From NCBI GenBank assembly GCA_010093815.1, contig ML996569.1: a DNA stretch of 64,000 nt. The stretch is one strand, 5' to 3'. The translations under genes and the position numbers were made by a program. This document shows, in pieces, positions 5,853-50,446 of this stretch. Position 1 is the first letter of the stretch. Each line of letters begins with the position of its first letter. Under the pieces are notes generated by a model. It had not been told where the DNA came from and made no database searches. It was given only the letters and a program-made list of their open reading frames with translations. The stretch is from Pseudovirgaria hyperparasitica (taxonomy: Eukaryota).

Positions 5853-6540
5853 TGTTTCAAAGAATGAGTTGTGATTGAGTGCTAAACGACACTGTGAAGC
5901 CAACTCTGGTTGCAATATAATCCAATGAGTAGGATAAGATACCTATACCAACCCCAGCCGTGTTGCAATCTCTCACTACATCAGCATAGAAAAACAACTA
6001 AGGTGATACAGGTCCATAGTGTATACGCATCCCATGGACCATGGGACACAGCCTGACAACCCCAGCCTGTGCCAGCGCAGAATGAAATATACCTAATGGT
6101 CGATCCTTTCTCCAACTAGCCTTCTCATTAAGCTAGCCTTCTCATGAAGGTAAGGCTCCGCTGGTGTCGGGTAGAACAGTATGCATGAATGAGTCTTTGT
6201 GAACTCTCTGTCGTGCCAGGTGTGTGCGACCGGAGATGCTCTAGCACATCAGCAGGGATCTATCACTACCCTGAAAATAGCGGTGCGTTGTGTGGTGCAA
6301 AGCTCCTAATGCCATGTAATGCATATATAACCATCCTCATGGTCATTACCATCATAATTACACGGATAGGCACACACTCGTAATCGATAAGTGCACACAT
6401 GCCCCCCCAACAATTACACGGGACACACACACACGCATATATGTCGTCAGCTAGCATCGAAGGTTTACCTTCTACTGTTTCGCGTGGAAATCTCCTGCTT
6501 CTCTCACCCGAGCATCGCAGAATCGAATACAGAACTGGAA

Positions 6541-8072: not shown

Positions 8073-10003
8073 GAAGGTCTCTATCGTTGGGTACGCTTGA
8101 TGAGAATGATCTACTTTGTGACCGCACACAGGGAGATTACGATAATCTTTGAAGTGTTGTCCCATCTTTCTTTTCCGGTGCTAATGGGCCAATTGTGGAT
8201 TGAGAAGCAGGCAACCTCCCTGGCTTCATTATGACTCACCCAACCTTGAACGCGAGCAAATCGGACTCTCTCTCTACGTGCTGCCACTCATTCGAGACAA
8301 AATATCAGGCGAGTCATTGTCTTCGGCGTGTTGGTGGCGTCTTGTTTGACTATTTCAGCCTTGTATGTAACTTTGGCGGACACTTGTTCAAGTTCATCGG
8401 CGGAGGCCATCCAGCGTATGGGTCGTAGTAGTCTGTTGTCGGGGCTAATGCTCATGTTTCCCGCAGCTTGAGCAATCGTGGTACAAACCTTGATGGGTTG
8501 GCAAATGAAATAGTCTAAAAACCACGGTTAACGGTCGTGCAGAATTCTACACGCATTAGTCTTCAACTGTGATACTACATGTCGACTAGGCTCTGCTCTT
8601 GGTTTGTAACTACGCTACACTACATAGCAAAGACGGAGCCAGTGTGGCATTTTTGTAACTTGCTTTGATTTCTTCCATCTGTACACCTCGATTAGTATAT
8701 GCTCAGATCTCAATAAAGTCCTATACCATGACTGTGTCGCTATGTTCGGTGCTCCGGCCTAACATATACAAATGACCGTGCTCGGGCTGTATGCTAAAGT
8801 CATCTCCTTCACGGTGCCTAAGGCTTTATTCGACTTCGCCATGCGTGTCAAGGGTGCATGGTTTCTACCAAGCCTTGCGTGTATTGGTAAGAGAATTCCA
8901 CAAAGTATAGACAGCCATGGACTTCTGTCTCGGGCCAGAATCATTCTTTTTGGGGGCACATGGGCACAGGTGCGTTGCAATACGCGAAAGTGAATTAGCT
9001 GCATCGGTGCAGAATCAAGATGTGTGACTGCCATCGTGTCTCGCTGCAACTGGGCTCAGGGGGCGCACAAGTCAGCCTCGGCGGGCCCAGACTGAAGAAA
9101 TAAGGCAAATACACAGGGTTTTCGGACTGGGGAGAGTCTCGTGTATATCTATCTGCACGTTTGAGCACAGCCAGGAATTTGCAAACAACGAGTGAGAGGT
9201 TGAATTTTACTACGCGCTTGCCCCGCGAACAGGGGCTGCCTAGACCCGCTAATCCATAGAAATTCATAGGCCGGCTAGGGCGGCCCGAGAGAGTGGATAC
9301 GCTAAAAAACCGAACGGCATTTTAGATCCAGCGCTAAGCCACCGGCTAGACTGGCCAGGGTCCTTGAACTGCCTCCCAACCTCTGTTCTCTCAGAGTATG
9401 TTGTTTCTTGTATGTTCTCATCTTCGAATTTTCCCATGCCGCTCCATTGCTAGACCACCCCATTCACATAGCGATGCAGAGCGCCACTCCAGCTTGGATT
9501 CCAGTGGGGCCGGGGTTGGTTGAACTACAAGTCGGCCGTGGAACCAGCTCGAAGCCGGGGGTATGTAGAAGCGGGAGCATTCCTGCAACTCCGCTTATCT
9601 CGTCATTAGGATTATAAGAGTCGTAGATCAAGTAAGACAGACATGCTTGGATGTCGATCGCACGCCAGCCGGCCCAACGACAACACCCCTGTCATTCCAC
9701 ATTTGATGGGTGATACAGTAAAATCCTTGGCATATGCTGAGAGCCCTTTCGAGATCCAATGGATACCGTCCGCGCTGTTTTTTGGACATCGATAGATTTG
9801 ACCTGTCCGCATAATTCACATACGTGCGTCTGGTGCCCTGGCCTGGCCTGGCCCTAGTGCCTGCGCTGACCCGACTTAAAAAAATGCAATAAAGTTGCAG
9901 GAGGTCGCATCGAATCGTATCCACTATCAGCCAAAGATTGCATTTACTTCATTTCCATGAAACAGCGATAACACAAATAAGAAGAAGCTAGACAGAATCA
10001 GGA

Positions 10004-11590
10004 ATGACATCTGAGCTCCACAACATGCCTAAACCACATTTTCGCAGCAAAGAGGAAAAACAACTTATGAGATTCTATGAACCTCTAGTCCTTCTACACA
10101 CCCTCGGTAGAAGCCGAGGCGACCGTACACAGAATTCCGTTGTATCAACTGGCACTTTCTCGGAAAGGCGGAAGTTCTTGAATAACCTCGCCTATATCTG
10201 CGACTTCAACACAGGGGGCGATACCGTTACATCCATCGCTCTGCAAGATTGCGCAGATGGACCAATATACTGGGTCGCGTCGAATTCAGAGAAGAAAGTT
10301 CTCAAAAGCCATGAATTCCTCATGTCGGTTCTATCAGATCTGTCGAGAGTCTCGGCTGAATCCGCTGAACCAAGTCCCGAACACAAAGAGCGATTGGCTA
10401 CTGAATTGTCCGAGAAGATCATTGTGTTTGCTAAAAAGAGAATCAATGGGTATCGGAGTCATCTGCGAACTGTTCTGCCACGGGCTATTGACTATCTTCA
10501 GAGGCGAGACGCTGTAGAAAGTGAGTATCTTGCAGCCAGATATCAGCTTGAAGTATTTTAATGTGCCCTAGATAGCGATATCTTAGACTGGTTGAACTCG
10601 TGGCGGACTAATGTATATTCGGAAGATGTGTGCCGTTTAGCCTACGACGCAAGAAGGTCCGAAAACATACGCGTACTTCGAAATTTGGGCGAGAAGCAAA
10701 ATCGTTCTGGCAACCGAGATTCAATCTACAACATACTGCATTCTGTCCGACATTACATCGGGCGACTGGGGTATCACTTCTGTGTTGCAAAGGCCTTGCT
10801 CAATTCTGCACGCCCCCTTGCGACGCTCTTGACCAGCTACGAAGTTCGAATCGTTGCACCTATGCCACCAGGTGAGATGCCAGATGCAGATTCGAAAACT
10901 AAGCTTGATGGTATCTTGGTACGAATGATGCCTAACAATGCAGTGGCATTGCCTTCTATGCAGGAAAACCTGCAGGCTATGGATGACAAGTTCGGCCTCA
11001 CGAAGCGGTATCTCGAGCTGTACACTGATCGGAAGTATTCTACGTCGGACAAAAGAAGATCTGCCGGCGTACATGCTGAAATCAAAGTCCTCGAGTACTT
11101 CTTCACGCAAAAATTTAGATTCGTGGATAACGACAAATTCATTGCGACCAGCAAGCCATCATGCTATTGCTGTCATCTTTACTTTAAGCACCACCCATTG
11201 ATGCCCTCAGAACCCGCCACTCATTGTAACATCTACTTGAACTGGCGTCCACCTCAATTCGTAGGAGAGCACTTCAAGAACTCGGTACGCGATCACCCAC
11301 GCCACATGTTATTCGCCATGATTCCCGATATCCGACAAGAGGCTCTACAACAAATTCTTGAGAGATCTCCTCCACGCCAATCTCATCCAGACTCTAACAC
11401 TGGGATCACGGAATCTGCCAACCTTGGGCACGCTTCAATACCAGATTTGTCGCACGAACTTGAGCGGTTATCTCTCGCTGGAGACATTGCCTCGTGTGTT
11501 GGTGACTACAGCGATGACATTCGACTGAGCGACTTAGAAAGCTCTGATGATGAGGAGGGCGGAGGGATCAGTCTTCTAGACTATGAATAA
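10004..11590 (+). CDS. OTT_1508-like nucleic acid/nucleotide deaminase
   Basis: Intron 10521-10571 joins two ORFs in frame. Zinc-deaminase motifs VHAEIKV and TSKPSCYCC; N-terminal FLNNLAYICD...GGDTVTSIAL. Confidence 0.8.
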
Positions 11591-13177: not shown

Positions 13178-13836
13178 TAGTAGTATTAGTAGTAGTAGGG
13201 CTATTAGTTTTCCATCACTAAGCGTTGGCTAAGAGTATTTCTTGCAGAATGACATTTTACCACCGTCGCTCAGTGATGCCTTGATGTTTGTAAGCATTCA
13301 ATCAATCTTAATGTCCTTTGGCCTTGTCGATCCCTCCTATACTACTCTGCTTCCTAATAGGGTAGATTTCATTGGCGTAGGGGAGCCGGAGCTGTCCTTA
13401 ACTTCGGATGATGATTGATTCAAGAGGAGCTGGGGTTGCGGGAAATCGCGTGTTGTACAATAGCGAATACTACCCAGCCGCTATTCGTGAAACAAGACCC
13501 AGGTTATATTACAATCCTTGCACATATGTACAGATCTGGAACATGATCTCTTTCTGATTAGGACAGAATCCGTGCACTTTCATTACTGTATGATCTCATC
13601 TGTGTTATGGGGAGATCGGCATGCAGATTAGACGTAGAGCGTGATATGCAAATGCCCTTTGCACCATGCGTCAGGACTCGTATCAAGATACGAGGTGTCT
13701 GGGCCGTCGCCTAGCCATTATGGGCCCCTTTTAATCGTGCTGGGCCCCAAGCAGAGCTTCGGCTAACCTTACACACACCTTGGCACACCGTACTCTCTTT
13801 CACCACCCATTCACTCAAGAACATTACCCTGATAAC

Positions 13837-14316
13837 ATGGCTCGAAATAAGCATCACAGGTCCCGTGGTACCAAGGCTACATACACGTTCACATCTCTTC
13901 ACCAAAATATCCTTGAAGCCATATCATACGATATCAACCACGCCTGGTTTTGCGGGGCCAAGAATCGGCAGATTCCAGAAAACGAATATCAGACACATGT
14001 TATGGGCAAGTTTAGATGCGTCAATGTGGCCTGCGACGCTACATGTTGGAGTAGTAAGAAGGTGGCTATACTGATTCGAGGCTTCTCGAACAACGGCTAC
14101 AACGCTGAAGTCTTTGGTCAGCGTTGTAAATCATGCAATAATCTCGGCTTGCTGGAACTAGACGAGGAGTCTTACGTGGAGCGAGTGGCGTACAGGGTCA
14201 AAAAGTGGGCAGGAGTCCACGCGGAGCGTCCGGTATATAATGGAAAGGAAGGCCCGCCGCATGAGAGGAGTTTATGTGAAGGATGCAAGAGGGGGGTCTG
14301 CCGATTGGGAGACTAA
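13837..14316 (+). CDS. zf-3CxxC zinc-binding protein (RTP/ZAR1-like domain)
   Basis: GKFRCxxxxC...WSS...VFGQRCKSC...GPPHERSLCEGCKRGVC is the 3CxxC pattern; intronless; first ATG at 13837. Confidence 0.85.
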   Translation: MARNKHHRSRGTKATYTFTSLHQNILEAISYDINHAWFCGAKNRQIPENEYQTHVMGKFRCVNVACDATCWSSKKVAILIRGFSNNGYNAEVFGQRCKSCNNLGLLELDEESYVERVAYRVKKWAGVHAERPVYNGKEGPPHERSLCEGCKRGVCRLGD

Positions 14317-14789
14317 CGGGACCAAGATCAATGACTATGACATCGATCACACATGACTAACGAGCTATATGAAGAGGCAGGGTACAACACGAGACAACGG
14401 GAAAAGCTTTGGAAAGTGAAAAGACGCCAAATGAAGAGACCTAAATCAATCAGGGGGAGGGATGTAGGGGATTTTCGGACGTGGGAGTCAGGTGAAGAGA
14501 TTGGCCAAAGCTTAAATAAGTACACCAAAAGGTGTTTGCTTCTTCATGTTGGCTTGCTCGGATTTTGTTCCATATGACAGATGGTGGTTCCCTATGACAC
14601 ACAAAAAAACGCGCGATATTATGGAAGTTTAGATTGCTACACACCTCTTGTTATTTCACAGTTCTGCAGTGGGTCATTTGTATGAGCCCTAGCCTTGCCC
14701 TCTCACACGTGTCGAACTGTGTTATTATTATATAAATCGAAGACTCCATAACGAAAGACGCCTTTTCGACAGATTTCCAAGCTCATTAT

Positions 14790-15482
14790 ATGACAAGACT
14801 ATCGACTTCAAAATATCTGTCTAGTACCATCATGCCGACGAAAGCAACCAATCCCCCGAACATATACCTAATTGGTGCACAATGTACTGGAAAGACGACC
14901 CTGCTGGCAGCGCTACAAGCTTTCTTCTCTGATCCCAACAACCGTACCAGAAGCGAAGCTGGAGCATTCGACCCTCCAGCTATAATCCCCGAGGTTGTAC
15001 GCGAAGTCATGGAACTTGAAGGCTTCTCTGCCAGCGATATTAAGGATACCAGATGGCAAATCCTACAGCGTCTCACGCTGGAGGCGCAGTGTTTGGCCGA
15101 GGAAAAGCTCACCGACCAATGGTACATTTCTGACCGTTCTGGATTAGACCCAATTATCTATGCACAACTTCAGGAGACGAACGACGCGCAGGCAATGAAA
15201 GAGTCAGCTAGCTGGGCGGCATCGCAGCAACGGATGAAAAATAGTCTCGTCATCCTATGTGAAGCTGGTAACCCAGACTGGTTCAAGTTGGACACTGCCC
15301 GAATCTCCCATTCGGAATCGCATAACTGGCATAATATGCATACGAGATACATCACTCTTCTAGAGGAGACCGATATCAAATTTTTTCTCCTGGAAAAGTC
15401 AATTACGAAGATTGGTGAGAGGGTCAATTTCGTTATTCGGAAGTTTGAGAGAATGTACACCGAAACGGATACCAGTGCATGA
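14790..15482 (+). CDS. AAA_28 (NadR-type) P-loop NTPase, nucleoside/nucleotide-kinase-like
   Basis: IYLIGAQCTGKTTL P-loop, PEVVRE, and ISDRSGLDPIIY (DRSxxDxxxY, typical of this kinase group); intronless. Confidence 0.75.
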   Translation: MTRLSTSKYLSSTIMPTKATNPPNIYLIGAQCTGKTTLLAALQAFFSDPNNRTRSEAGAFDPPAIIPEVVREVMELEGFSASDIKDTRWQILQRLTLEAQCLAEEKLTDQWYISDRSGLDPIIYAQLQETNDAQAMKESASWAASQQRMKNSLVILCEAGNPDWFKLDTARISHSESHNWHNMHTRYITLLEETDIKFFLLEKSITKIGERVNFVIRKFERMYTETDTSA

Positions 15483-16409
15483 GACATAACGCAATCGGCT
15501 AGTCTTGTCAATATAGATTGCTTGTGTCATCTACAAAGTGATCACGCCTGCAGGCCGCCAACTTGCCGTTAGGTTTTCTGACGAAAAAGGCTTACAGAGG
15601 ACTTCTGCTTTATATAGAATTCAATCTCAAATTCGTTTTTCGAGTGCTCTCCGCTTTCTGAGTCTAAAGAATGATGCTAGAAGTCTCCAACAGGTGCTGT
15701 TACCAACTGCTCTAAATCTATCTCACTAGCTTTGTGACTGAGGTCCATTAAATTAAGAACTATAAGGTACGTGCCATCCATTTTTCAAGACCTACTATCG
15801 TAATCAAATGACAATGCTTTATGGGGGCTAGGCTTCTCTATACTCTCGTGGCATTTAGAGACGTCGCCCACGTAGCGATGGATCATCGTGTCATGGTAAA
15901 TCATAAGGCCATACATTATAGATCTAGTATACGTCTCTATGGGACGATGCTTTTGTTTCTACATTGACTTCTAATTCTCTACCTTTCTCTGATAAACCTC
16001 AAACGTTTACATGATGGTTAGTGTCGTTATCGTAGCATATACTAATATAAGTCTTTCGACTTATGCAACATAGACTCTCGCATGACGGAGCTCTAGCGTC
16101 TAAATACAATTTTGGAATGTTAGAATCACATAGTTTGTACTGAAGTTTTAACATTCATGAAGTAATTAGAGCGTATGCTAATGTCCGAGTAGTAGTATAG
16201 AGGACTTGAATATGTGGTTTTACGAAACATAGCGGAGAAGAAAGTACTTTAATGGTTATTGTTCTTGTTCTCTAGGCTATTGGTAATAGACATCCTCATC
16301 GTCTCGACCCCTAGTCCATAGCATTTGCCTTATGATTCGTTCAACGACATCATGATACGTTGTCTTCCAGTTTGCATAGCCTTCTCAATGTTCCTAAATT
16401 CTCCACGGT

Positions 16410-17105
16410 CTAATTGTCACGGTCGGGATCAAGAACAGTCTCCCTAAGTGCCGATAACAGTTTCTGGTAGGTGGCATTAACATCACCACTTGAGTCGACC
16501 TAAACGTGAGTTAGTGATTGAAACACATGAGAAAAAGGACAACAAAGTCACCGTGACAAGAATTCCCCTATGATTATATTCCGCAAGGATCGGACTGTTG
16601 AGCCTAACGAACTCTTTGTATCTCTTCTTAAAAACGTCTGTTGTATCGTTACGTCCGGGGATGGCTCTGGTCAGATAACGCTGATGAACCAAAGGCTCTT
16701 CGCACTGAAGATGTAGCACCAGGTCAGGGGCCCTGAAACACTTTTCCATATGGAGAGCCTGGTTCAATTCCCGCGGAAAGCCGTCCAAAAGCACCACTTT
16801 AGCTCCGTTAGAGTAAAGGGTATTGATAGCTCTAGTCATTATTGGTTCTAGGTCCGTGATATCTAGTAGCTCGTTGTCGGCAATGCAATTCATGACTTCT
16901 TTGGAAATAGTGTCACTATCGGAAGCAACCATCTCTCGAAGATGATCCCCGATCGACAAGTGGGAGTAGCCAAAATCATCTCTGAGTTTGTGGCAAAGGC
17001 TACCTTTGCCAGAGCCTGGGGCCCCTGAAAGTCCAAATTAATGAGTGTAACTTGGTGGACGGAAATCATATGCTTACCGATCACAAAGACAAGGTACTTC
17101 GTCAT
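16410..17105 (-). CDS. Adenylate-kinase-family nucleoside monophosphate kinase (UMP/CMP-kinase-like)
   Basis: Intron 17025-17077 gives MTKYLVFVIGAPGSGKGSLC...HLSIGDHLRE. Also LLDGFPRELNQA and a short LID (R...GRNDT...KKRY) as in UMP-CMP kinases. A second intron near 16500-16550 gives the C-terminus VDSSGDV...DRDN*. Confidence 0.85.
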
Positions 17106-17770
17106 GTTTGATGAAAAATAAGTTTGAAAGAGGAACTGATTGGTAACGGAAATGGGATTGATTGATACTGCCAATCTTGTGAGGAGGTGACGTGTAAGAA
17201 TAGAACGCCCAAATCGCGCTTGAGGATACTATAATTTGAGTACGGACTGGGGTGTCGGGTAGAAACCAAGCAGAAGTGGAGCTCCCCGTAGGGGAAGGAA
17301 GGAAACTATAGAGCAGAATAGGCTACTTGCCTGGTGAAGAAGGTCTAAAACCTGTTTGTCAGCTGGAGCAGGGGAAGAGCATGAGCTCAAGTCGTACAAG
17401 ATCAAGCTTACCGTCACGTTTGGTCATCTTTGCTATTCTGAGTGAAGCGCCGACAGAATTGGGGGCATGACAAGTAATGACGAGTGTACAATACCAGATG
17501 AACCTTTCTATGTTACAGCCGCAAACGTTTCTAACCTGAACAGTACTTATTGTGTTGGTTACGTTAGAGGATGACGTGCTATTGACGAAAGCTTTGGCAA
17601 GCAATCACTCTTTCTCTGCATGGTGTTTGGCGGTCAGATTACAAATCGTTCATCCTACACTAATGTGCGTGAAGCAAGAGATATATAATACTGTCCCTTG
17701 CCCAGAGGCCGGCGTTCTCTTGCTATATTGACTTTGCGCCATCGAAGAACGATACACACTGAGCGTTTCC

Positions 17771-18796
17771 ATGAACACAATGATCTCAATTTATCTTGCT
17801 GGAGCGATCTTCTTCGCCGTCCTTCTCTCCATCTTTCTCTTTCCAGGACACGGGCATTCGTCTGCACTTTGGTCTGTACATTCGAAGGTTAATTTGGATA
17901 CGGACAGTGTACCGGTCTCCGTCAACTATCATTTCACTCGAAAATGTAACATGACTTGCGGGTTCTGTTTCCACACTGCCACAACATCAGACATGCAGAG
18001 CACCGAAAAGGCTATGCAGGGTATCAAGGCCCTCAAAGACGCGGGGATGCGCAAAATCAACTTTGCTGGAGGCGAGCCATTCCTCTACCCAAAGTTCCTT
18101 GGGACGATCATCGATTACTGCAAAGATATCAAAGTTGAATCTGTCTCTATTGTCAGCAACGGCAGTAAGGTTACACGACGATTCCTCGAGAAGCACGGGA
18201 AGCACATTGACATCCTTGCCATTTCCTGTGATTCATTCGACGAGCCGACTAATATCAAGATCGGTCGCGGAACAGGCAACAACGTAGAGCAGCTATACAG
18301 AGTCAAGGAATGGTGCAAGGAGTTTGGAATCAAGTTCAAGCTCAACACTGTAGTGTGCAACCTCAATTGGCAGGAGGATATGAACAAGCATATTTCGGCG
18401 CTGGCCCCCTTTCGGTGGAAATGCTTCCAAGTCCTCATCGTCAATGGAGAAAACGACTCACCCGAGCGACTACGTGACGCCACTAATTTTCTAATCACGA
18501 ATGAACAATATCAGCAGTTCATCACAAGGCACGCGGGTCAAAAGTCAATAGTTCCAGAATCAAACCGTGTCATGGCTAAGTCTTACCTTATCCTTGACGA
18601 ATACATGCGGTTCCTGGATCGTGATGGACGGCAACCTTCCAAGTCTATCCTGGAGGTGGGGGTACAGAAAGCACTCAAGAGTGTCTTCTGGGACGTAGAA
18701 AGCTTCAAGGAGCGCGGAGGGATATATGACTGGCAGGCTACTGGCTCGAGTTGTGGCTCAGTTGAACAGAGTGACCAGAAGGAATTGGACTGGTGA
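17771..18796 (+). CDS. RSAD2: Viperin / radical SAM ddhNTP synthase
   Basis: SVNYHFTRKCNMTCGFCFHT (CxxxCxxC), KINFAGGEPF, SIVSNGS, DILAISCDSF, FKLNTVV, RWKCFQ, SYLILDEYMRFL, FKERGGIYDW and terminal LDW. N-terminal hydrophobic anchor; intronless. Confidence 0.97.
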   Translation: MNTMISIYLAGAIFFAVLLSIFLFPGHGHSSALWSVHSKVNLDTDSVPVSVNYHFTRKCNMTCGFCFHTATTSDMQSTEKAMQGIKALKDAGMRKINFAGGEPFLYPKFLGTIIDYCKDIKVESVSIVSNGSKVTRRFLEKHGKHIDILAISCDSFDEPTNIKIGRGTGNNVEQLYRVKEWCKEFGIKFKLNTVVCNLNWQEDMNKHISALAPFRWKCFQVLIVNGENDSPERLRDATNFLITNEQYQQFITRHAGQKSIVPESNRVMAKSYLILDEYMRFLDRDGRQPSKSILEVGVQKALKSVFWDVESFKERGGIYDWQATGSSCGSVEQSDQKELDW

Positions 18797-19829
18797 GCTT
18801 CTGTGCAAAACTCCGGAAGGGTATTTGACAGACCGAGAACCGATCGAATCGGAATCGTGGAAGAAATAATAGTCCCTGCCACGATGATCGGGTCCATGAG
18901 TCCAGTGACAGCTTTTACTAGTGGCTAGTCTACATGCGTATATTGTACACAGCGTTCCTGGGTTTGATATGGTAGCTAAACTTTGTTTCCACTGACTTTA
19001 GTGGGCTCATAGTCCAGTATTTGGTGCTCCCATTGGATACCAATTTTGTAATGGCATAGGCTCTGGAGAGTCAAGCCAAGTAGTGACTTTTGAGCTATAG
19101 GTGATGAATCTACCGGTGTTGGTCAAGCTCTGTGTAATAGCGAGTCAATCTAGTGCGTTATTTGGGTGTGGGAGCTTTACAAACCATTATATTGCACGAC
19201 TGGAAAGGGAGAGAGGTTATGGTCGGTTGAGTGAGTTTGCTTCTTCACGACTGTGAGACTCAACTTTGAGATTCTGCCTTGTTCACCACTGCGAGAAGTT
19301 GGCCGAATGTCTGGTGACAAGGATTTCGTCTTAGTCAATATCAAGCATCCCTGCTTTCCTTGCCGTTGAGATTGGATCAAACTCCGGAATGATGGAAATT
19401 TGTATAGCCTGTGACGGGTTTGATGGGCAGGCATCCTACCACATTTGGCAAGAGCCTTGGTTTTCTATTGTTCCTTGTAATATCCGAGCCCATGAAGCTT
19501 AGACTGCGGGGGGCTGTGTTACATCCTGTAAGCTTCACTACCAACTGTTTGTGCGGCCCACTAGCCGGCTCATAAAGACCAATTTCAGCCATGCAGTTGT
19601 GACCAAAGCAAAGCTAGGCGCAGCATGGCAATTCACAATTGCAAGCCAGTTGCATGTTTCCACCTTAAGAGTGTTTACCTGATCACACAAGTTCACGCAC
19701 AAGGATCTATAAGAACTCTATGGTCCCCCATCCGCCCTCTATACTCCACCAATCCTCAACGTAAGGCTATCATCATCACATTCACACTTTTCAAGCCCTC
19801 TAGAATCCAAAGAAAGCTCGTACACAATC

Positions 19830-21839
19830 ATGTCTCTCGAGAAGCCTGTCATCATTGGCATCTATGGGCTACCTGGAGCCGGCAAATCATATCTCATGAG
19901 GCAGCTCAAGGAGAAGCTCAGTGAGACCGACTTCCTCTTCTTTGAAGGTTCGGAAGTGATTGCAACTTTAACCCCGGGAGGTCTCGATGCCTTCAAGCGA
20001 CTCAGTCAGGAGGACCAGACCAAGTATCGACATGCTGCGGGAATCTCTATCAAAGAGCAGTGCAAGTCTCTCAAAGCAGTCGGGGTTGTCACGGGTCACT
20101 TCATGTTCTGGAGTGGAGGTGAGGAGGAGGCGAATGAGGTCTGGACTGCTGCTGATGCAGAAACCTTTTCCCACATTATCTATCTGGACGAGATCACATC
20201 CGTCATCTCCACAAGACGACAGAATGACACTGTCAGAGACCGTGAAAATGTATGTCTCGACCATATCCACCGCTGGAAGGAGACTGAAGAGGATCGACTT
20301 CGCAAGCTCTGTGGAACCCACGGCATAATTTTCACCAGAGCCTTTCCTTATCCGGATATGCTACAGAGAGTCGTCCCATTGATTCAAGACTTCGCCACAC
20401 ATACGGAGGCTCGCAACCTTGAAAAGGCGTCTGCCAAGCTCGACATGGCCCTCTCTGAAAGTGATGGCAAACTCGACACACTTGTCGTTATCGACGGTGA
20501 CAAAACTCTGGCTCCACAAGATGCTGGTCAGATGTTCTGGGACCGCTACTGTATTCAGAAGCTGTCCTGGAAGGAAGCCTGGACCCCAACATCAGTTCAT
20601 TCAGGGCCTCTTGGTTACTCATATGAGGCCTTCCGACAAGTCGCACTGCTTCATGATGAAGCACTTGGTCAGAAAGATTTCGACGATCTCTGCGACTCCA
20701 TAGCGAAGGATGTTGACTGTCATCCTGAGTTTGTTTCCTTGCTCAAAGAGATATCCAACTCTACTCATACACGCGCAGTTGTTTTAACGTGTGGTCTGAG
20801 CCGCGTGTGGGAGACTGTACTGAAAAAGTTGGAATTAGGTGCCAAAGTCAACGTCATCGGTGGCGGACGGTTGTCCCATGATCTTGTAATCACACCAGAA
20901 GTCAAACGATCGCTCGTGCTTCATGCTCAGAAGCAGCGTGGTCTCTTCGTTGTGGCCTTCGGAGACAGTCCCCTCGACATACCGATGCTATGCCAGGCCG
21001 ATAAAGCTGTTATAATTGTTGGCGACGAAAAAACTCGAAGCCGATCTATGGATACTAATCTCACGTCTATTCTCGAGAATGATGAGTACAGGCTCAACGC
21101 TGTACAGATACCCCTGCCTCCAGAAGTAGTACCACGTCTGGACGTGAACAAACTCCCAGTCATCAATTTCGACAACCTTGAGCTTAATCGCGCTATCTTC
21201 CATTCAGGTACAGGTCTTAAACTTCATCATGCGACATCCAATGCAGCCGCTAAAGTACTTGCGACATCAATGCGAGATGCATCTGTCGGCGGTCCAGAGC
21301 TTCGCGAAAGACATCGCCGAGCAGGATTCTACTTGGCCGCCCAATTCGTGTCCAAGATCGTTGGACTTGAGGAATGCGAGATCCGACATGTACTCGGTCA
21401 TCAAGACCACGGTTATTGCCTCCTTCATGAGAGAAAGACTCTAATTGTCCCCCTGATGCGTGGAGGAGAACCGATGGCCTTTGGTGTGAACGATGTCTTC
21501 CCGAAGGCTAGTTTCGTCCACGCTAAAAATCCACCCGATATCACTGAGCTTCATCTACAGGATTGCTCTACCGTAATTTTAGTTGACTCCGTTATCAATA
21601 CCGGAAAGTCTCTCGTTGAATTCGTTACCCATGTCCGCGGTATCAACACCAAAGTCCGCATAGTAGTAGTCGCAGGGGTGATCCAGGCCGATGCGATTGC
21701 GAAGAGTAGTCTTCTTGCTGAGCTCCCTAAGGACTTCCGTCTCGAAGTCATTGGCTTGCGTCTTTCTAAGACGAAGTTCACTGGACAGGGAACTACCGAC
21801 ACTGGGAACCGCTTGTTCAACACCACTCACCTCGACTAA
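19830..21839 (+). CDS. Three-domain fusion: P-loop kinase + HAD phosphatase + uracil-phosphoribosyltransferase-like domain
   Basis: GIYGLPGAGKS (P-loop); VIDGDKTL and AFGDSPLDIPML (HAD motifs I and IV); PLMRGGEPM, VILVDSVINTGKS (PRPP loop) and TDTGNRLFNT (resembles the UPRT C-terminus GDxGDRLFGT); intronless. Confidence 0.88.
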   Translation: MSLEKPVIIGIYGLPGAGKSYLMRQLKEKLSETDFLFFEGSEVIATLTPGGLDAFKRLSQEDQTKYRHAAGISIKEQCKSLKAVGVVTGHFMFWSGGEEEANEVWTAADAETFSHIIYLDEITSVISTRRQNDTVRDRENVCLDHIHRWKETEEDRLRKLCGTHGIIFTRAFPYPDMLQRVVPLIQDFATHTEARNLEKASAKLDMALSESDGKLDTLVVIDGDKTLAPQDAGQMFWDRYCIQKLSWKEAWTPTSVHSGPLGYSYEAFRQVALLHDEALGQKDFDDLCDSIAKDVDCHPEFVSLLKEISNSTHTRAVVLTCGLSRVWETVLKKLELGAKVNVIGGGRLSHDLVITPEVKRSLVLHAQKQRGLFVVAFGDSPLDIPMLCQADKAVIIVGDEKTRSRSMDTNLTSILENDEYRLNAVQIPLPPEVVPRLDVNKLPVINFDNLELNRAIFHSGTGLKLHHATSNAAAKVLATSMRDASVGGPELRERHRRAGFYLAAQFVSKIVGLEECEIRHVLGHQDHGYCLLHERKTLIVPLMRGGEPMAFGVNDVFPKASFVHAKNPPDITELHLQDCSTVILVDSVINTGKSLVEFVTHVRGINTKVRIVVVAGVIQADAIAKSSLLAELPKDFRLEVIGLRLSKTKFTGQGTTDTGNRLFNTTHLD

Positions 21840-21957
21840 GCATCACGTCATTAGGAGTTGCAACGAGATCACTTCTAGATCGGGCTATTGACTGGTTCGC
21901 AGGATATGGTGATGTCTTCGTATCTATCATTCTATATCGTCTCTCCGTAGAGATAGA

Positions 21958-22437
21958 CTAAGGAAATAAAGGCCAAATGCGTCTCAAGCGTCGTGCAACT
22001 GTGACAAACTCCTGCACGTCCATTTCATGCCGACGTGCAACTGCCTCCAGCTTTTCATCCTTGCTCGCGTTCGTGACTTCGTTCACAGCTCCCTTTCGAC
22101 CACTTTTGCAAAGCCAGGCTGTCATTTTGTAAAATCCGTATCGAGAAGTGTATTTGGCGACCATGTACAGATGTACTAAGGAAGGACGAAGGTTGTCATT
22201 GAACTGGGGCTGAGAAAGATCGAATCCATCGTGGCGTGCGCGATACACCAAGAAGATGACATCGCTCGTCTCGCTGTACTTCTCGAGTCGGGTCTGAGCT
22301 TCGTGTAGCTCTTCAACTTCCTCGTGGAGGCGATTCTGGTGCCATGACAAGTCAGACTGTCGAGGAAGCTTGAGAATTGATAACCATCGCATGAAGATGC
22401 GTTCTTTGAGCGATTTGTAGGAGGATATCGGGCGCAT
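21958..22437 (-). CDS. MazG-like all-alpha NTP pyrophosphohydrolase-domain protein
   Basis: RLHEEVEELHEA...SETSDVIF fits the EExxE...ExxD metal-binding motif; first ATG at 22437. Confidence 0.6.
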   Translation of the reverse strand: MRPISSYKSLKERIFMRWLSILKLPRQSDLSWHQNRLHEEVEELHEAQTRLEKYSETSDVIFLVYRARHDGFDLSQPQFNDNLRPSLVHLYMVAKYTSRYGFYKMTAWLCKSGRKGAVNEVTNASKDEKLEAVARRHEMDVQEFVTVARRLRRIWPLFP

Positions 22438-24709: not shown

Positions 24710-25842
24710 ATGAAAGCCGAGCTCATGCATACGGAAAGCCACAAGGCTATGGTGGAGATATGTGATTGGAGAGCTGAGATCATCTCAACCTTCATTCGCG
24801 AGCGTTCGACAGTCTTCAACGAACTAATGATATTGAGAAAGAGGGTGAGACGCTTTTTAAGCCCTTAATGATGTATCTGATTCATTGATAGGGTTGGGAA
24901 AACCCTGCAGGGGACACGTTCTTCAAGAAACGACGTCAAGTAGCTGACAATGCCGACGCAAAAACTAAGCTTGCGTTTTTGAACATAATGCAAGAAATTG
25001 CTGAACAAATGGACGCCAAGATGGATATCATAGGGAACAATGAAGCTACCCGCCGAGAGTTTCACATACTGGATCTTTGTCTAGCGCCAGGTGGTTTTGC
25101 AAAGTATTTCAAGAATTCCATCCCGAATTCGAAGGTATGGGGGTTCAGTCTTCCAAAATCATCTGGTGGTCATGAGGTGTTGCTCGATCTACGACAAAAT
25201 TGGCTAGAAGTCACGTTTCAGGACGTTACTATGCTGATGGACGAGATCCTTGGAGGCGCGAGCGATCAATCAGAGTCTGTAAAGGATCATATTGAAGCTG
25301 AGCAGCTTCGAAGCCAATGGCCCTACTCCACGCAAAAATTTGACTTGGTCATCTGTGACGGACAAGTACTTCGGACCCATCAGCGGGCAGAGTATCGACA
25401 GTCCAGCGAGCCTAAAAGGCTTGCCTTGAGTCAGTTGATAATAGCCCTGCAGAGGCTCACTCCTGGCGGAACACTGATTATGCTGCTTCATAAGATAGAA
25501 GCGTGGGATAACATTCAAGTCCTGTCTACCTTTCAACAGTTTTCAGACATCTGTTTTTTCAAGCCCAAGCCATATCATGCTATACAGTCCTCATTCTACC
25601 TAGTGGCAAAGAATGTGAGATCCGAGAGTAGCGCTGCCTTGGACGCAATCATGAAGTGGAGAGAAGCCTGGAAAGCTGCTACCTTTGAAGGCCCGTTGAC
25701 TGAATATGACACAGAGGAGGAGATCATGAAGGTCTTGGGGAATTTTGGGGATGCTTACGTCAAGATGGCTGAGCCAGTCTTTGAAATCCAGAAACTCGCG
25801 CTGGAGCGATCTAGCTTCTGCAAGGCACGACCTCTCAAATGA
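24710..25842 (+). CDS. FtsJ/RrmJ-like SAM-dependent methyltransferase
   Basis: Exon 24710-24844, intron 24845-24891. Motifs ILDLCLAPGGF (SAM binding), DLVICDG, PGGTLIMLLHK and FKPKPYHAIQSSFYLVA. Confidence 0.85.
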
Positions 25843-27893: not shown

Positions 27894-30800
27894 ATGGAAA
27901 GCCGTTTCGTCCCTGGTAGGCTCTCAACCGAGAGTCTCCAACACATCATCAATCATGTTTTCTTGCCTCCGAAGCTTCCACAAGAGGATGATCTCTCCGT
28001 AGACAATGACCTCAAACTTATCACTGCTGTCCTAGAAGCCCTAAAGGACTTTTCGGTGTGTCTCAATGACCTTGAGGTATCGGCTACCTTAAAAATAACC
28101 ACCAGCATGATCGACCGGATGATATCTGCGGCACCAAATGGAACACCTCTGGAAAATCTGGTCGAGAAGCAGATGAATAGTATGATGGTAAACGGTATGT
28201 AAATCCCGCTGATGTTGTCCCTCACACTCGATTATTCAGCTTATGACCGGAACAGATGTGTTAGCATTCAATGTGAAGGCTCAGAATGCAGCGCTCCTGA
28301 TACGTTGTCACGAATCAAAGTACATCTTTGAGGCCTTTGAGGTTTCGTGTCCAAACGCGAGTGTTACAGGAACTAAGGGCCGCCTGAACAGAATCTTCCC
28401 GCAAGAAGCCATCATGATCTCTTCTAGCATCATGAGCGATCCAGCATTTCGGCTGCCGTTCTCTGATATGCTTGTTGATTTGGCTAAAACGACACCTGAA
28501 GACGCCTACAAGATTTCCCGGAAGGCTCAACGTAATCTACCAGAAATACGAGACGTAATTGATCCCCGATACTTTACTGAGCTCGCATTCGGAATACTTC
28601 GTGGCATAGGCACTCCAGTAGAGATTCCACGCATTGAAAAGCGGGCCCAAGACGAAGTCCTCTGGTCAGACACTTATTGCTGCTGGCGGAGGTCACCATT
28701 GTGGACCGTGCTACGTGTAAGTTATCACTCTAAGCACTGATGCAGTCAAAGAAGCTGAACTAATCCATGCTATCTAGGTCGCTATTCAGACTACCCTCAT
28801 GCGACAGATTGGTCCAGATCGTGGCTGCGCAGTGTACAAGGCATTCATGATCCATTTCATGACCCGGCTGCTCATGCAAGCGACACGTGGCAACATGTGT
28901 AGCGATATTCTTTATACAATGCATAGAAAGATTGTTCGACGGTTGCATAAGTTATCCGAGATGAACGAAACTGAGTCCTTCACTTCACTGGCAGGTAAAT
29001 CTACATGGGGTTCGCATATTGAGAATACCATTGAAGCCAGCTATAAGGCTTTGAAATGTAGATGGCATCAGTTGGAATCATGTGCCGATCCTTTCAAGAC
29101 GCAGAGTGCCTGGGATGTATCACGGTTGTCGTTCCAGGATGATACATATCTCAAGATCAAGACTCTGAGATCGTCTCTCGACGCGGTGTTACACCGTCCA
29201 CCCCAGAGCTATAACACAAGGGAAGCTGATATCGGATTTTCCGCCCGCATCTCTAAGATCCCAAACTCCTTGCCTAATATAAATGCATTGGCACAGTCAA
29301 CTGGTCAAGCACAGCGCATCCTACTGTGCGATATTGAAATGTGGATCCAGGATTGCCTGGTCGACTGGACAGACTGCAACTTGAGCAAATCAGACGTCTG
29401 CTCCGATCTTGCCACACTGATGACTGCATATTCAACAGCCGGTCGAGCCTGCTATGTCGATGACCAGGAAGGGCTCTCGCGAATGTTTCTTGTCGTTATG
29501 GAGCTTTGGGTGTGTCTGGATAGAATTGTCACTAGACACGAACCGATGCTGCTTGATCATCCAATAGGTTTCGCGCCAGATCTGTTTGATCCTCTTCTCC
29601 TGCCTTCGAAGTCTCAAATGGCAAGACTTGCTGCTGTTGAAAGCTATCTGACTTCGAGACGTCAGAGCTGCCGTGCCCAGTATCCTTCTATATTTAATGC
29701 CTTTGGCGATAGTAATTCTTTGCCTGTTCGGTATTTTGACGGGTCTGAGAAGCACCAAGAGCTACACAGAACCATCGAAAGAGAAGCCAATACTGTCCGA
29801 GCAAGCAGGTTAGAACTTTTCCGAGCAGAACGTCACCGCTACAACGACTTGTCAAGGAAAGCTAACCAGGCTTCCCATGAACGAATTCAGAAGTCGGGAT
29901 GGGACTGGTACAATGAGGAGACCATAAGCTGGGAGGAGAATGCTTGCCCTCATTGCCAAAAATGCCGGTGGGAGAAAGAAGCCGCAGGATTAAAGATTAG
30001 ACGACATGAGTGGCCTTTGCCATCCAAATTAGCGGAAGCCAAAACAGCTGTCTTCGAGCTAGATTGTCCTAAAGCGATCAGTGTATGGAGGGACATGACC
30101 TACTTTGTTATGGTTGACGTCCTCACAAGTCCCCAGAACTTGCCACGCGATGTTCCAGCCACTGGAAAGTATGGACTGGAAAATTACGACGCATTGCGGG
30201 CTCATTTCATCTCGGACCAGAACCGCATTGTCATCAGGTCTGCCACGAAACCGATTCATGTATCGCATTACCGAGACGCAGATATTTCAAGTGCTACAGA
30301 ACAGTCGATATGCGTCGAGCACGCGATGCAATACGATATTCATGATTCTAGAAACGAGAAAGCTGCACATAAGTTTATCGGGTACGCGGATGTTCGCAAA
30401 GCATGTTCGCAACCAATAATGGACAAGAACTATGAAGGCTTACAGTCCTGGGTTGACAACACGACGCATCAACCCAATGAGGTGATTGCGAAGCAGTCAG
30501 AGTGTCCGCTCGAATTGTCTGTTCATGAATACCTCTCGTTTGGACACCTCCGCTCTGGTCCCTATCTACAGTGGCATAACATTGCGCGGGCGCTGATCGA
30601 CGGCACCTTGAACTTTAATACAGAAGCAGTGAGTGTTATCCTTGCCCAATGCGCATGGCAGGCTGGTCCATGTTGCGCTGAGGATGATCCAACCATGCGG
30701 GCCTCCCATGGAACGCTAAGCGCTCCCCCTTTTTGTCTTGACCTGCTTGATGCTCTCGAGGAGCTTTTGTCCAACACAAAAGAGAATTGGCAAGGTATCA

Positions 30801-33800
30801 TGTCCATTCAAATCCTTGTCACCCTTACAAGCCGGATCCTAAGCCTAGCGTCGCATAAAGATGTCCGACAGAAGTGCCTTGACATTCTTTGTGAAGCGCG
30901 TAATGTGACTTTCGCATGGACTCGGAAGCTGAAAGAGAAGCTCTCGACCTGCTTTGAGGAAAACGAACGGAAGCAATGGATGGACGTCAGCATCGAAATT
31001 GCACTTTGCTGTTACAGTACTTTTGCATTGGATCTTCCGGACATCGAATTGTTACTTACTTCTGAGGATCTTGTCGCAAAACTGACCGAATGCATGATTA
31101 CAATCGATGAACTACGTCCAACATCAATTGGTAAACTTCCTCGACACATGAGAAGCTCTCTTCTTAGATTTTCTAGGGTAGCACAGATTGTGGAGGAAGT
31201 TCTGTGCAGGGTCATCCTTCGAAACGGCAATGGACTGAATCGGAGTATCACTAGTTTATGGGAGTCCTACAGCCCTGGTAGTCCCTGGCAGATAGCTGTA
31301 CGCGGGCAGCGTGAATGGTTGATGACAAAAACGGCCGAGACAACAGACTCTGGCACGGTACCAGTGTACTTCAATCTACTGACAGGGAGTCTACTTGTGA
31401 ATGGGTCACCTCTTACGCGGCTTCCTACTACTTACGAGCGAAATGCATCCTACCTAAGGCTATTCTCTAAGGTAAGAACATGCATGTCCATAGGAGATGG
31501 AGACTGATATTATCATAGATGTATATCACTGTGATACCGTCAACTATGCGGGGGATGCGGTATGAAAGTCGAACGTCTGTATTCGGATATCAGGTAAGAT
31601 CTCCTGTAAGTACGCAGCTCGCGCCGACATACTGATTTGTTCCGCAAGGTACATTTCTTACTTGATGGTCCAAACCTTGTAATTTGTGCAAGAAAGGAGA
31701 GTGAAACCTTTCGTATTCTACCCACGGACCTGTTGTTTGACGATTTCCCTCCCGCTTTTATCAGTGGATACTCCCATTGGCTGAACCTTTCGACAAAAGA
31801 ATTGGAATTTCGCCCTATTACCAACCCTTGGGTCACATGCAAGTCAAACTGGAGGATACAAAGTTTAGGGGACGCAACCAACATTCTGTCATTGGAAAAA
31901 CTTTTACACCTCGACATGCCTACAATTACTGCGGAAAAGCTTTTACACATCGACATGCATACAATCACTGCTCACCGCATTTACCAGGTGCTGAGCCCGA
32001 TTGAACGTAGGGAACACATCCACATTTCCTATCATCCAGCCTCCCAATCTGTGGACGTCCATCTTATACGCCTACGCCTCGACTTCTTTATCAACGGAAG
32101 CGGGGTACTCGAATGCAGACAACGTCGAAATATGGAAGTAGACAAAAATCAGTCTTGCGGTACATTCACAGGTGTTCGCAATAAGTTGATTCTCCGCTCG
32201 AACAAAGACTCACATCGCTGCATTATCGTCCCATTCGGGGAAGTCAAGCTAGTATCACGAGAGAACCATACCGAGGTCCAGGTGGAGACTAGTAGTGAAA
32301 GCGACATTGAGTATTTTTATTACGAACTAGACATCACGCTGCGTCGTCTGAAAGATAATGATAGCATGAAAAGCTGTTTATTTCGAACTCTGCTTCATGC
32401 TACCTCAAGTCATTGCCTACCGGACTGCTTCACTGGTAGAACAGGTACTGAACAGGCGATTGCCAATCTCAAAGATGCAAGCACGTTATCGTTCCGCACC
32501 TTGAGTTCAGAAGAAATTCAGATCTTGGTGCGGATTGGACAGCTCACTCCGCATCGGGTCTACTATCCTCAGCACATGGCAGTAATGCAAGAGGTAAAGT
32601 GGCATACGGTTCTGCCACCTCTGTCGCAACATGAATCTTTTTACAGTTTAGTTTCTGACATATTCAAGTGTGCACGGGCACAGAAAATGTTCTACACCAC
32701 CGAAGGTTTGCCAGACGAAGGTAGATTCGGTGAGCCAGCTCTCTTAGCTAGGGCAGAGATCCGCAACTCCATCTTTAGAGGAATCGACTATGGAGGTGAG
32801 AAGCATAGTACTGTTCATGACAAGGCGTACCAAGAGAGCACAAAAACCAAAGAGGCAAGTGTCTGTGGGCTGACATCCTTGGTGAATGCGTGGCCTAACC
32901 GGTTGAGTCCTCCGAGTACCCTTCTAAGCATCATTGAGGACTGGGAGGGTACACTCAGAGGGCAGAACGCATCTTCTCACCACGATTCTCTGAGATATAA
33001 CCACACCTGGAAAGGAACACCGGATATAATGTTGAATTCGTTTTGCGAGCTTCTTCATCTCCTTTCACATGCTCGAGAGGAGCAGCATAAATATCGCATG
33101 GCTATCAGTCTTAGTACCCTCGTATATTCCGATATGAACATGAACCCTCTATGCGAAGCTCTTCTGGGTTTTGCAACGCTACCAGAACTTCGAGCCCTGG
33201 TAATGCCGCATTACAGTACGTACAACTTGGGAGAGGGATATGAGCCTACACAAACCGCTCTAAAATATTTGATCAACAGTGCCGCGAAGGACTTCAGCCA
33301 ATGCCCGGAAGCCTTGTTGCCGGCTCTCAGATTCGAGAAAAAGTGGCAAAGTAATGATCGAAGACGTGGCCTACACACTGAGGCTAAAGAGAGCAAGGCA
33401 AATCAACTCGTGGATCAGCTACTTTTACTATGGCCTACCGATACAATCAACATCGCGAATCGAAGCATTTTTGCAACACATTTTAACCTAGACCAAATTT
33501 CTGAAAGTGCAAATACTAGATTCGCCAGCTGGTTCCGGAACAGGAAATTCAAGACCTTTATATCCCAGGCTCAGTCAATTCTCAACCGCCATCGGACTTC
33601 ACCTAGACATACTGCACCTTACAACTTCTCTCGCCTACCCCAGATATCTCGGAAGCAGACTACGCACTTAGACTGGAAACATTTGTTCTCGGGAGAGCCA
33701 CCTAGCATAGAGGCCACGGGAGGGATCGATATGTCGTTGTTTTTGAGGCCCAGTGCTTCTATGCGAGACTGCCAGCGGGTTAGAAGACTTATCGAGCGGG

Positions 33801-50038: not shown

Positions 50039-50446
50039 ATTGCATCAGGGATTTGGTTCAAACTGAACGAGGAATCTTGAGGCAAGGCAATGTCGTTGGA
50101 GGTCTGTGTTTGAAAGCATAAATATATCGAATTGTACCTCGAAGATCTTCTCGGCTGCGGGGTTTATCTTATGGGATCTGCCTGCAACATGAACGCAAGG
50201 GGGCTATAAGTTCAGCCTTATAGGCGTATTATCAGGGCCGCTAGACCTAAGCCTCAGGGCCGCTAAGCCTAAGCTAGATTCTCCCAAGGCTGAAAAAGTG
50301 CCGACACCTTTCACGAGTACTCTCACTACAGCTCGCAGGCACTGACGACCTCCGCAACTCTTTTCTGTTGTGGCTGTAAGCTCAGTATGTATATGTATCA
50401 CTAGCGAGTACAACTTCTGCATATCTAGTAGCTACGGCTGCAACTA

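Follow-up and report, generated by a model that had tools for sequence, protein, structure and literature searches.

The locus raises the question of whether a fungal viperin works together with four neighbouring genes of nucleotide metabolism as a single pathway. The window analysed here is a 64,000-nucleotide stretch of contig ML996569.1 from Pseudovirgaria hyperparasitica (GCA_010093815.1), shown on one strand. The five genes concerned are referred to as A to E, with viperin as gene C. An original prediction had read them as one nucleotide supply and turnover module around viperin, and all of the genes and named domains that it listed were found in their places. The question was then approached through the identity of each gene, its company in other genomes and the readings that fit both.

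Gene C (17771..18796, plus strand) encodes viperin, a radical SAM ddhNTP synthase of 341 aa with a hydrophobic N-terminal segment; 12 in-frame residues are missing from the deposited model. Residues 43-341 match the solved Trichoderma virens viperin 6b4c with an E-value of 4.9e-133, and 7n7i, also from T. virens, is matched at ~5e-133. The cysteines C59, C63 and C66 of the CxxxCxxC motif are invariant in alignment A1. Against the NCBIfam model viperin_w_prok (NF038283), the protein scores 264 bits (cut-off 180), and against TIGR04278 it scores 365.6, under the cut-off of 450. According to the available part of Shomar et al. (bioRxiv 10.1101/2023.09.13.557418), the T. virens enzyme and an Aspergillus homologue yield mainly ddhUTP, the UTP-selective pocket of the former contains Arg257, and a hydrophobic N-terminal tail is linked to antiviral, ER-anchored viperins. 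When the window and T. virens proteins are aligned, the loop motif FLDR is the same in both, and across 22 fungal viperins the conservation of R284 is at least 90%. R284 may be the equivalent of T. virens Arg257. Being so near to the UTP-preferring T. virens enzyme, the window viperin appears to be of the UTP type, as had been proposed.

Gene B lies upstream of viperin on the opposite strand (16410..17105, minus strand) and encodes a protein of 196 aa. The gene model made here has three exons (17105-17078, 17024-16552 and 16499-16410) and two GT..AG introns of 53 and 52 nt, and the reading frame is open after splicing. The product belongs to the short-LID adenylate/UMP-CMP kinase family, with 86.8 bits against Pfam ADK (cut-off 26.8, E-value 2.1e-24) and a P-loop of the GxPGxGKG type, GAPGSGKGS, which spans the first splice site. 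The best PDB matches, AK1 (1.7e-21) and the yeast uridylate kinase 1uky (1.6e-19), score alike. With the main exon only, 84.9 bits were obtained for TIGR01359 (cut-off 207.6) and 98.5 for TIGR01360 (cut-off 284). The intergenic region common to B and viperin, 665 bp as read from the sequence (17106..17770), presumably acts as a bidirectional promoter.

For comparison, metagenomic viperin loci were collected. A scan with a single viperin query gave no relatives, and the scan with alignment A1 gave 80 loci, which form 66 distinct groups on contigs without a taxonomic label. Flanks of at least 3 kb were present on both sides in 19 groups and on one side in 27 of the 66, with 39 of the 66 having less than 3 kb on both sides. 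A B-like kinase was found upstream of viperin on the opposite strand in 23 of the 66 groups, and in 15 of the 19 that are well flanked on both sides, at a head-to-head gap of 266-1196 bp. The role of kinase B as a partner of viperin was thus upheld. Linkage of fungal viperins to a CMPK1-type kinase has already been published, as seen in the available part of Shomar et al. (bioRxiv 10.1101/2023.09.13.557418), and the window resembles that system in having a UTP-type viperin beside a kinase of the adenylate/UMP-CMP family, here head-to-head, an arrangement seen at most of the examined loci.

Downstream of viperin, gene D (19830..21839, plus strand, 669 aa) encodes a triple fusion by Pfam: an AAA_17 P-loop kinase at aa 12-146 (5e-16), a HAD phosphatase at aa 219-387 (PF12710, 8e-19, 69.2 bits) and a UPRT-like domain at aa 469-665 (UPRTase PF14681, 5.3e-40, 137.5 bits, cut-off 27). 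Its motifs are intact, namely GLPGAGKS, the HAD motif I DxDxT (DGDKT at residue 222), the HAD motif IV GDxxxD (GDSPLD at residue 378) and the PRPP-binding loop ILVDSVINTG of the UPRTase domain, and 134 of the 147 family-invariant columns are kept. Uridine kinase-UPRT fusions exist in yeast and plants. Compared with these and with Upp/FUR1, D likewise combines a kinase with a C-terminal UPRTase that has a PRPP loop, but the kinase is of the AAA_17 type and the HAD phosphatase lies between them. The UPRT domain is not the bacterial Upp equivalog, since it scores 36.7 bits against the NCBIfam upp model TIGR01091 (cut-off 208) and 35.1 against NF001097 (cut-off 114).

Members of the D family occur widely in Pezizomycotina, and literature searches brought up none that has been characterised. 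The window copy is 48% identical to a canonical D, as against a median of 72% among the 120 matches listed, and it stands on a long branch (0.96) as sister to a Zasmidium copy. Such divergence would be in keeping with recruitment to a new role, but the catalytic motifs do not differ from those of canonical copies and give no hint of a new substrate.

Gene E (21958..22437, minus strand) encodes a small all-alpha protein of 159 aa from the first ATG, in an ORF open to 22479. It has no Pfam family at threshold; the best was PRA-PH with 15.5 bits against the 21.3 required, matched by 2 of 47 family members. The E-family profile gave only chance-level matches to PDB sequences (E-values of at least 0.76), and the AF2 model (pLDDT 89.7) gave no Foldseek match in the PDB at E ≤ 0.001. 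With VIA-align, the best folds were the dimeric dUTPases 5myd (Z 8.5), 1w2y (6.7) and 2yay (6.3), followed by many MazG/PRA-PH chains; 13 of the 50 rows were dUTPase, MazG, PRA-PH or pyrophosphatase by title; for helical bundles, however, a Z under about 13 counts as weak. Among named Atlas clusters, the nearest were PRA-PH, dATP/dGTP pyrophosphohydrolase and MazG, at 0.82-0.84, and these are leads only. Enzymes of this superfamily have a four-helix core that carries a metal-binding ExxE...ExxD motif. The E family bears an acidic motif of this form, with complete conservation at E57 and at least 90% at E54, E70 and D73. E appears to resemble the dimeric dUTPases and MazG/PRA-PH proteins (5myd, 1w2y, 2yay, 3cra) in its helical core (Z 8.5 to 5.5) and in this motif, and differs from them in having neither a sequence-family nor a Foldseek match and in belonging to a family paired or fused with the kinase-HAD-UPRT protein. 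On its modelled fold, E is probably an NTP pyrophosphohydrolase of the MazG/dimeric-dUTPase superfamily. Since no sequence family was reached at threshold, Foldseek gave no match and only VIA-align recovered related folds, the name 'MazG-like' given to it earlier holds at superfamily level only.

The company kept by D and E in other genomes was different from that of B. The E family counts 147 representative clusters and is centred on ascomycetes. In six proteins from other ascomycetes (P0398, P0388, P0438, P0480, P0435 and P0033), the E domain is fused to the D-type architecture; five of them came from 13 long E matches scanned and one from the 120 D matches listed, and the D part of P0033 is 85% identical to canonical D. 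Judged by these sequences, D and E form a conserved pair of their own, kept without viperin elsewhere. Canonical D and viperin were found on separate contigs in Emydomyces testavorans, Xylographa trunciseda, Aspergillus avenaceus and Glonium stellatum. Neither gene turned up at any of the 80 viperin loci, whether by tblastn or, for E, by profile search as well, and this includes the 27 groups whose flank reaches 3 kb or more on one side. When 175 flanking ORFs were surveyed with Pfam, no UPRT or MazG neighbour emerged, and the sole HAD-superfamily match was an Acid_PPase ORF in L074. The proposal that the five genes are a conserved module was not borne out: of the partners expected to be linked to viperin in other genomes, B was so in many groups and A, as described below, in 2 of the 66, and D and E in none.

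Because D and E were not seen beside viperin at the loci compared and form a conserved pair of their own, the supposed five-gene pathway is probably two units that met in this genome. The reading favoured here, with fair but not high confidence, is that a UTP-type viperin immune cassette (A, B and viperin) and an independent uracil-nucleotide pair, D-E, stand side by side. The position of D-E immediately beside a UTP-type viperin, both with uracil chemistry, is a specific coincidence that counts against it.

The same survey brought out a further neighbour of viperin. Clustering by blastp of ORFs of at least 90 aa in the longer loci had shown only viperin, B and antisense artefacts to be widely common, and it missed a CYTH (triphosphatase-type) gene, which was first seen in the Pfam survey of flanking ORFs and then counted by tblastn and profile search. 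CYTH is present at 15 of the 19 well-flanked viperin groups, and a profile search of the whole 64-kb window did not find it even at E ≤ 10. At L001, the most closely related locus, CYTH occupies the position that E has here, downstream and convergent. The divergence of D, and a window without CYTH that has the NTP-cleaving-type E at this position, also go against the two-unit reading.

The main alternative is that all five genes act in one pathway in this lineage, as originally modelled. The UPRT domain of D would convert uracil to UMP, the three kinase domains would lead to UTP and viperin would form ddhUTP; E and the HAD domain would strip phosphates for self-protection or for release of ddh-uridine, the D-E pair having been recruited in replacement of the CYTH partner. 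Between the stop codon of viperin and the start of D lie 1,033 bp, and E ends 118 bp past D. The intact UPRT, HAD and kinase motifs of D, its unusual divergence, the lack of CYTH and the acidic motif of E, which is that of NTP pyrophosphatases, are all in keeping with such a pathway. Against it, there is a single instance, with D and E at none of the other viperin loci, the pair is conserved without viperin, and the catalytic motifs of D are those of canonical copies. In addition, 8- to 10-mers present in at least three of the four upstream regions (A, B/viperin, D and E) were no commoner than in 300 random region sets, which is a weak test. This pathway is considered unlikely, though worth keeping in mind.

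A more specific form of it, to which slightly less credit is given, is that in this lineage the CYTH (triphosphate-tunnel) partner was displaced by a recruited, fast-evolving D-E pair. One self-contained set of genes would then lead from free uracil to ddhUTP and would itself dephosphorylate ddhU-nucleotides for self-protection, signalling or export; it would be a eukaryotic immune 'operon' made from two older units.

The viperin cassette of the favoured two-unit reading includes gene A (14790..15482, plus strand, 230 aa; start at 14832 and 216 aa in the annotated form), which encodes a NadR/AAA_28-type P-loop kinase. It scores 74.8 bits against Pfam AAA_28 (cut-off 27, E-value 1.2e-20), and alignment A3 shows no variation in its Walker A motif, GAQCTGKT. 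A sequence search of the PDB gave no matches. Foldseek with the AF2 model (pLDDT 87.7) matched AbmG (8j5f, 2.6e-5), deoxyadenosine kinase (2jat) and thymidylate kinase (1e2g), with E-values of 2.6e-5 to 1e-4; AbmG, the best structural match, is an albomycin-pathway enzyme. A has an AAA_28 domain and a nucleoside/NMP-kinase fold, with a nucleoside or NMP as its putative substrate.

Relatives of A were found just downstream of viperin in L001/L002/L034 and in L008 (2 of the 66 groups), and in one Alternaria panax gene model, P0198, A and viperin are fused. The claim that kinase A is a partner of viperin was therefore sustained to this limited extent. It could be argued that only viperin and B belong together and that A, D and E came to lie beside them by chance, the region being rearranged and dense in genes. 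The A family is indeed widespread and often unlinked, with A and viperin on separate contigs in Periconia macrospinosa and Trichoderma ghanense and a second A copy in A. panax about 1,585 locus tags away, and the groups that link A to viperin are few. Nevertheless, A adjoins viperin in varied positions and orientations in the window, the L001 group, L008 and the A. panax fusion, and two more A/viperin pairs (P0127/P0263 and P0145/P0247) are suggested by contigs of equal length. This reading is given little credit.

Least credible of all, if only by a little, is a biosynthetic gene cluster for a diffusible ddh-nucleoside antibiotic in place of an intracellular immune module: the phosphate-removing HAD domain and E could release a nucleoside, and bacterial nucleoside-antibiotic clusters do contain radical SAM enzymes with kinases, AbmG being the best structural match of A, but the transporters, cluster transcription factors and tailoring enzymes that a secreted metabolite would lead one to expect are lacking within ~25 kb (the nearest MFS is at 48710-50044 and P450s lie beyond 56 kb), viperin has the hydrophobic tail of antiviral, ER-anchored viperins, as far as the available part of Shomar et al. 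(bioRxiv 10.1101/2023.09.13.557418) describes it, the neighbours of the locus are conflict-type genes (NLR, HET, deaminase, helicase), and the same viperin-kinase core is found across many fungi.

The deaminase among these neighbours, an OTT_1508-like protein in two ORF pieces (9992..11590, plus strand; Pfam OTT_1508_deam, E-value 1.2e-18) whose translation has HAE and PCxxC motifs, is a candidate accessory gene. Relatives of both pieces directly adjoin the B-like kinase in L001/L002.

In the favoured reading of two adjoining units, the genes of the first are identified, their motifs are intact and the linkage of B and A to viperin recurs. Its substrates, order of steps and antiviral role may be proposed as follows. 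Viperin and the UMP/CMP-type kinase B would be transcribed divergently from their common 665-bp region and, in this sub-lineage, would be joined by the NadR-like nucleoside/NMP kinase A and perhaps by the OTT_1508 deaminase. Uridine or UMP would be phosphorylated by A and B, a housekeeping NDP kinase would complete the conversion to UTP, and the ER-anchored radical SAM viperin would turn UTP into ddhUTP, a presumed chain terminator for viral RNA polymerases. The second unit would be a divergent, intact lineage copy of the Pezizomycotina-wide pair of D and the dimeric-dUTPase/MazG-like E, which probably acts on uracil nucleotides independently. Its placement beside viperin is specific to this genome. 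A functional coupling of D-E to viperin is possible, and its functional recruitment, perhaps in CYTH's stead, is doubtful.

The vertebrate viperin (RSAD2)-CMPK2 pair is comparable in that a radical SAM ddhNTP synthase is genetically linked to a substrate-supplying pyrimidine nucleotide kinase, as seen in the available part of Shomar et al. (bioRxiv 10.1101/2023.09.13.557418). The kinase of the window is AK/CMPK1-like, whereas the vertebrate one is CMPK2/thymidylate-kinase-like, and the expected viperin substrate is UTP here as against CTP. With respect to the fungal system in the same source, the window has in addition a NadR-like kinase and, close by, an OTT_1508 deaminase, is without the CYTH gene that other loci commonly carry and abuts the kinase-HAD-UPRT and pyrophosphatase pair, none of which appears in the available part of the published description. 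Literature searches gave nothing relevant on viperin with UPRT, with a biosynthetic gene cluster or with a HAD/phosphoribosyltransferase neighbourhood and, judged by titles, nothing related on viperin and CYTH or on fungal UPRT/HAD/MazG.

The viperin-kinase linkage is one of the few known eukaryotic immune gene clusters kept together. The locus suggests that in fungi it forms a modular cassette, with a core of viperin and an AK-type kinase and with accessories that vary (a NadR-like kinase, a deaminase and, usually, CYTH). If D-E does not serve viperin, the locus usefully cautions that, in fungal genomes, genes of matching chemistry can lie side by side by coincidence. If it truly does, it would show eukaryotic immune clusters gaining steps of substrate supply and product turnover, and it would give the first functional handle on a very conserved, uncharacterised pair of ascomycete enzymes.

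The five genes of the original prediction were all found at 14.8-22.5 kb of the window, which is fungal, its ORFs being sparse and broken up by short introns. Gene A (14790-15482, + strand) encodes an AAA_28 (NadR-like) P-loop protein according to Pfam. Its AF2 model (pLDDT 87.7) matched AbmG, deoxyadenosine kinase and thymidylate kinase in Foldseek (E 2.6e-5 to 1e-4), and the modelled fold resembles nucleoside/NMP kinases. A new gene model was built for B on the - strand (exons 17105-17078, 17024-16552 and 16499-16410), giving 196 aa. Both introns (53 and 52 nt) are GT..AG, the spliced frame has no stop, and the last exon can be aligned to B-like genes of other viperin loci. Comparison with Pfam, PDB and NCBIfam placed B among short-LID adenylate/UMP-CMP-family kinases. 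Viperin (17771-18796, +) hits the T. virens viperin of solved structure with E 4.9e-133 and carries the CxxxCxxC motif and a hydrophobic N-terminal segment. The deposited model of this gene (326 aa) starts three residues after the ORF start and removes 12 in-frame residues (WSVHSKVNLDTD) as an intron. Since the tail of this segment aligns with residues of the T. virens protein, an uninterrupted ORF of 341 aa seems preferable. Gene D (19830-21839, +) is a single 669-aa ORF with AAA_17, HAD (PF12710) and UPRTase domains, in which the Walker A, DxDxT, GDxxxD and PRPP loop motifs are all intact. Gene E (21958-22437, -) encodes a small protein below threshold for every Pfam family.

Gene linkage was studied in metagenome contigs; a scan with 22 aligned fungal viperins gave 80 loci, in 66 groups at ≥97% nucleotide identity. 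Many of these contigs are short; 27 groups have a flank of ≥3 kb on one side of viperin and 19 on both. A B-like kinase lies upstream of viperin on the opposite strand in 23 of the 66 groups, including 17 of those 27 and 15 of those 19. In two groups (L001/L002/L034 and L008) an A-like gene closely follows viperin on its downstream side, and one is fused to viperin in an Alternaria panax model (P0198). Two further pairs of A with viperin are suggested only by contigs of equal length, and many members of the A family are unlinked to viperin. D and E were found in none of the 80 loci by tblastn, nor was E by its family profile against all ORFs of at least 40 aa. Among 175 flanking ORFs surveyed with Pfam (97 and 78), there was no UPRT or MazG-type neighbour, and the only HAD-superfamily member was one Acid_PPase ORF in L074. 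The proposal that the five genes form one conserved module is not supported: B recurs, A accompanies viperin in two groups, and D and E in none.

The same survey first revealed a CYTH-domain gene (triphosphate tunnel metalloenzyme) beside viperin. By tblastn it is present in 33/80 loci (the L077 match is weak, 39 bits), such as L001:4703-5557 (-), L012:7081-7752 (+), L015:7027-7629 (-), L021:4483-5319 (-) and 29 more. This corresponds to 23/66 groups, within about 0.1-4.2 kb of viperin, and to 18 of the 27 flanked by ≥3 kb on one side and 15 of the 19 on both. CYTH seems to be a regular part of the fungal viperin cassette, as its third member. In the available part of a preprint on fungal viperins, the sole such mention is of four viperins fused to a domain described as "triphosphatase or cyclase" (Shomar et al., bioRxiv 10.1101/2023.09.13.557418). 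A profile from the locus CYTH genes, run with a cut-off as loose as E ≤ 10, found none in the 64 kb of the window. The closest related locus, L001 (viperin 70% identical to that of the window), has the order deaminase, B, viperin, A, CYTH; the window has deaminase, zinc-ribbon gene, A, B, viperin, D, E.

The E family comprises 147 representative clusters at E ≤ 0.001 in a full HMMER scan, and those with a source name are from ascomycetes. Its alignment keeps E54, E57, E70 and D73, an ExxE...ExxD pattern. The AF2 model of E (pLDDT 89.7) gave no Foldseek match. In VIA-align, which is independent of Foldseek, the best three chains were dimeric dUTPases, 5myd (Z 8.5, rmsd 2.4, 94 residues), 1w2y (Z 6.7) and 2yay (Z 6.3), although for helical bundles Z values of this size count as weak, and 13 of the 50 rows listed were dUTPase, MazG, PRA-PH or pyrophosphatase chains by title. 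Since these chains, a sub-threshold PRA-PH match and the named Atlas neighbours agree, the predicted MazG-like assignment was kept as likely at superfamily level.

Away from viperin, D and E are associated with each other as a separate unit. Proteins with the D architecture are widespread among Pezizomycotina classes; for the 120 matches listed, the median identity to a canonical member, that of the Dothideomycete Zopfia, is 72%. D-type domains occur in 5 of the 13 long E-family matches scanned: all three in P0398, P0388 and P0438, UPRTase in P0480 and AAA_17 in P0435. Of the other eight, seven gave no family match and the last is a MucBP repeat protein, which is unrelated. Conversely, one of the 120 D matches listed, P0033, carries an N-terminal E domain on a D part 85% identical to canonical D. 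Merging of neighbouring gene models may account for some fusions, but these too would place D next to E. In four species, canonical D and viperin are on separate contigs.

The 14.8-22.5 kb region is probably best read as a UTP-type viperin cassette (viperin, B, A and possibly the deaminase) adjoining an independent uracil-nucleotide pair, D-E. Less likely, though a serious alternative, is that D-E was recruited for viperin function, perhaps in place of CYTH: the chemistry matches, CYTH is missing from the window and its D is divergent, but the arrangement is known from one genome. Of the 147 columns that do not vary among 20 canonical sequences, this D keeps 134, yet its identity to every other member is only 46-50%, and it forms a long branch (0.96), sister of the Zasmidium copy (support 100/100). 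A secreted-nucleoside cluster is unlikely, with no transporter or tailoring genes nearby and conflict-type surroundings (SF1 helicase with AAA domain, OTT_1508 deaminase, NACHT-WD40 NLR, HET gene).

The OTT_1508-like deaminase (9992-11590, +) is 6 kb away from viperin and has HAE and PCxxC motifs. Since its two ORF pieces share one frame and are parted by one stop codon, a short intron is likely. A relative directly adjoins the B-like kinase in L001:2-1422 (-) and L002:2-1518 (-), where both order and orientation differ. The deaminase may be a cassette accessory, acting by C-to-U chemistry on RNA or nucleotides, or else an immune gene of its own. A Zn_ribbon_3CxxC gene (13780-14316, +) is just upstream of A; a 51% identical relative (L005:11644-12144, +) lies 6.4 kb downstream of viperin. 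Many conflict-type genes surround the viperin region (2-5942 (-), 24892-25839 (+), 28213-37568 (+), 41927-46162 (-), 50432-52267 (+)), including a large SF1 helicase (AAA_11/AAA_12) with AAA and AAA_lid_6 domains, an FtsJ-like methyltransferase, giant DUF6606/DUF3638/DUF3645 ORFs, a NACHT-WD40 NLR and a HET-domain gene. Since fungal genomes contain many NLR and HET genes, this may be chance. On the fungal-type contig L005, a dynamin-family GTPase (Dynamin_N, Dynamin_M; 13522-15270, +), which presumably resembles Mx-type antiviral GTPases, lies about 8 kb downstream of viperin. Another viperin contig, L039, lacks both B and CYTH genes. It encodes a Cas12f1-like TNB domain (TnpB/Fanzor-like) in an ORF of 586 aa (670-2427, +), and a C-5 cytosine DNA methylase immediately after viperin (8864-10027, +); its source may be a mobile element or another kind of organism.

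The kinase-HAD-UPRT protein (19830-22437 with its partner in the window; proteins P0002-P0120 and P0361-P0507) is highly conserved among Pezizomycotina classes, and repeatedly occurs paired with, or fused to, the small dUTPase/MazG-like protein. No characterised member was found in the literature searched, and D-E seems to be a core enzyme pair of pyrimidine-nucleotide metabolism in filamentous ascomycetes that is as yet unstudied.
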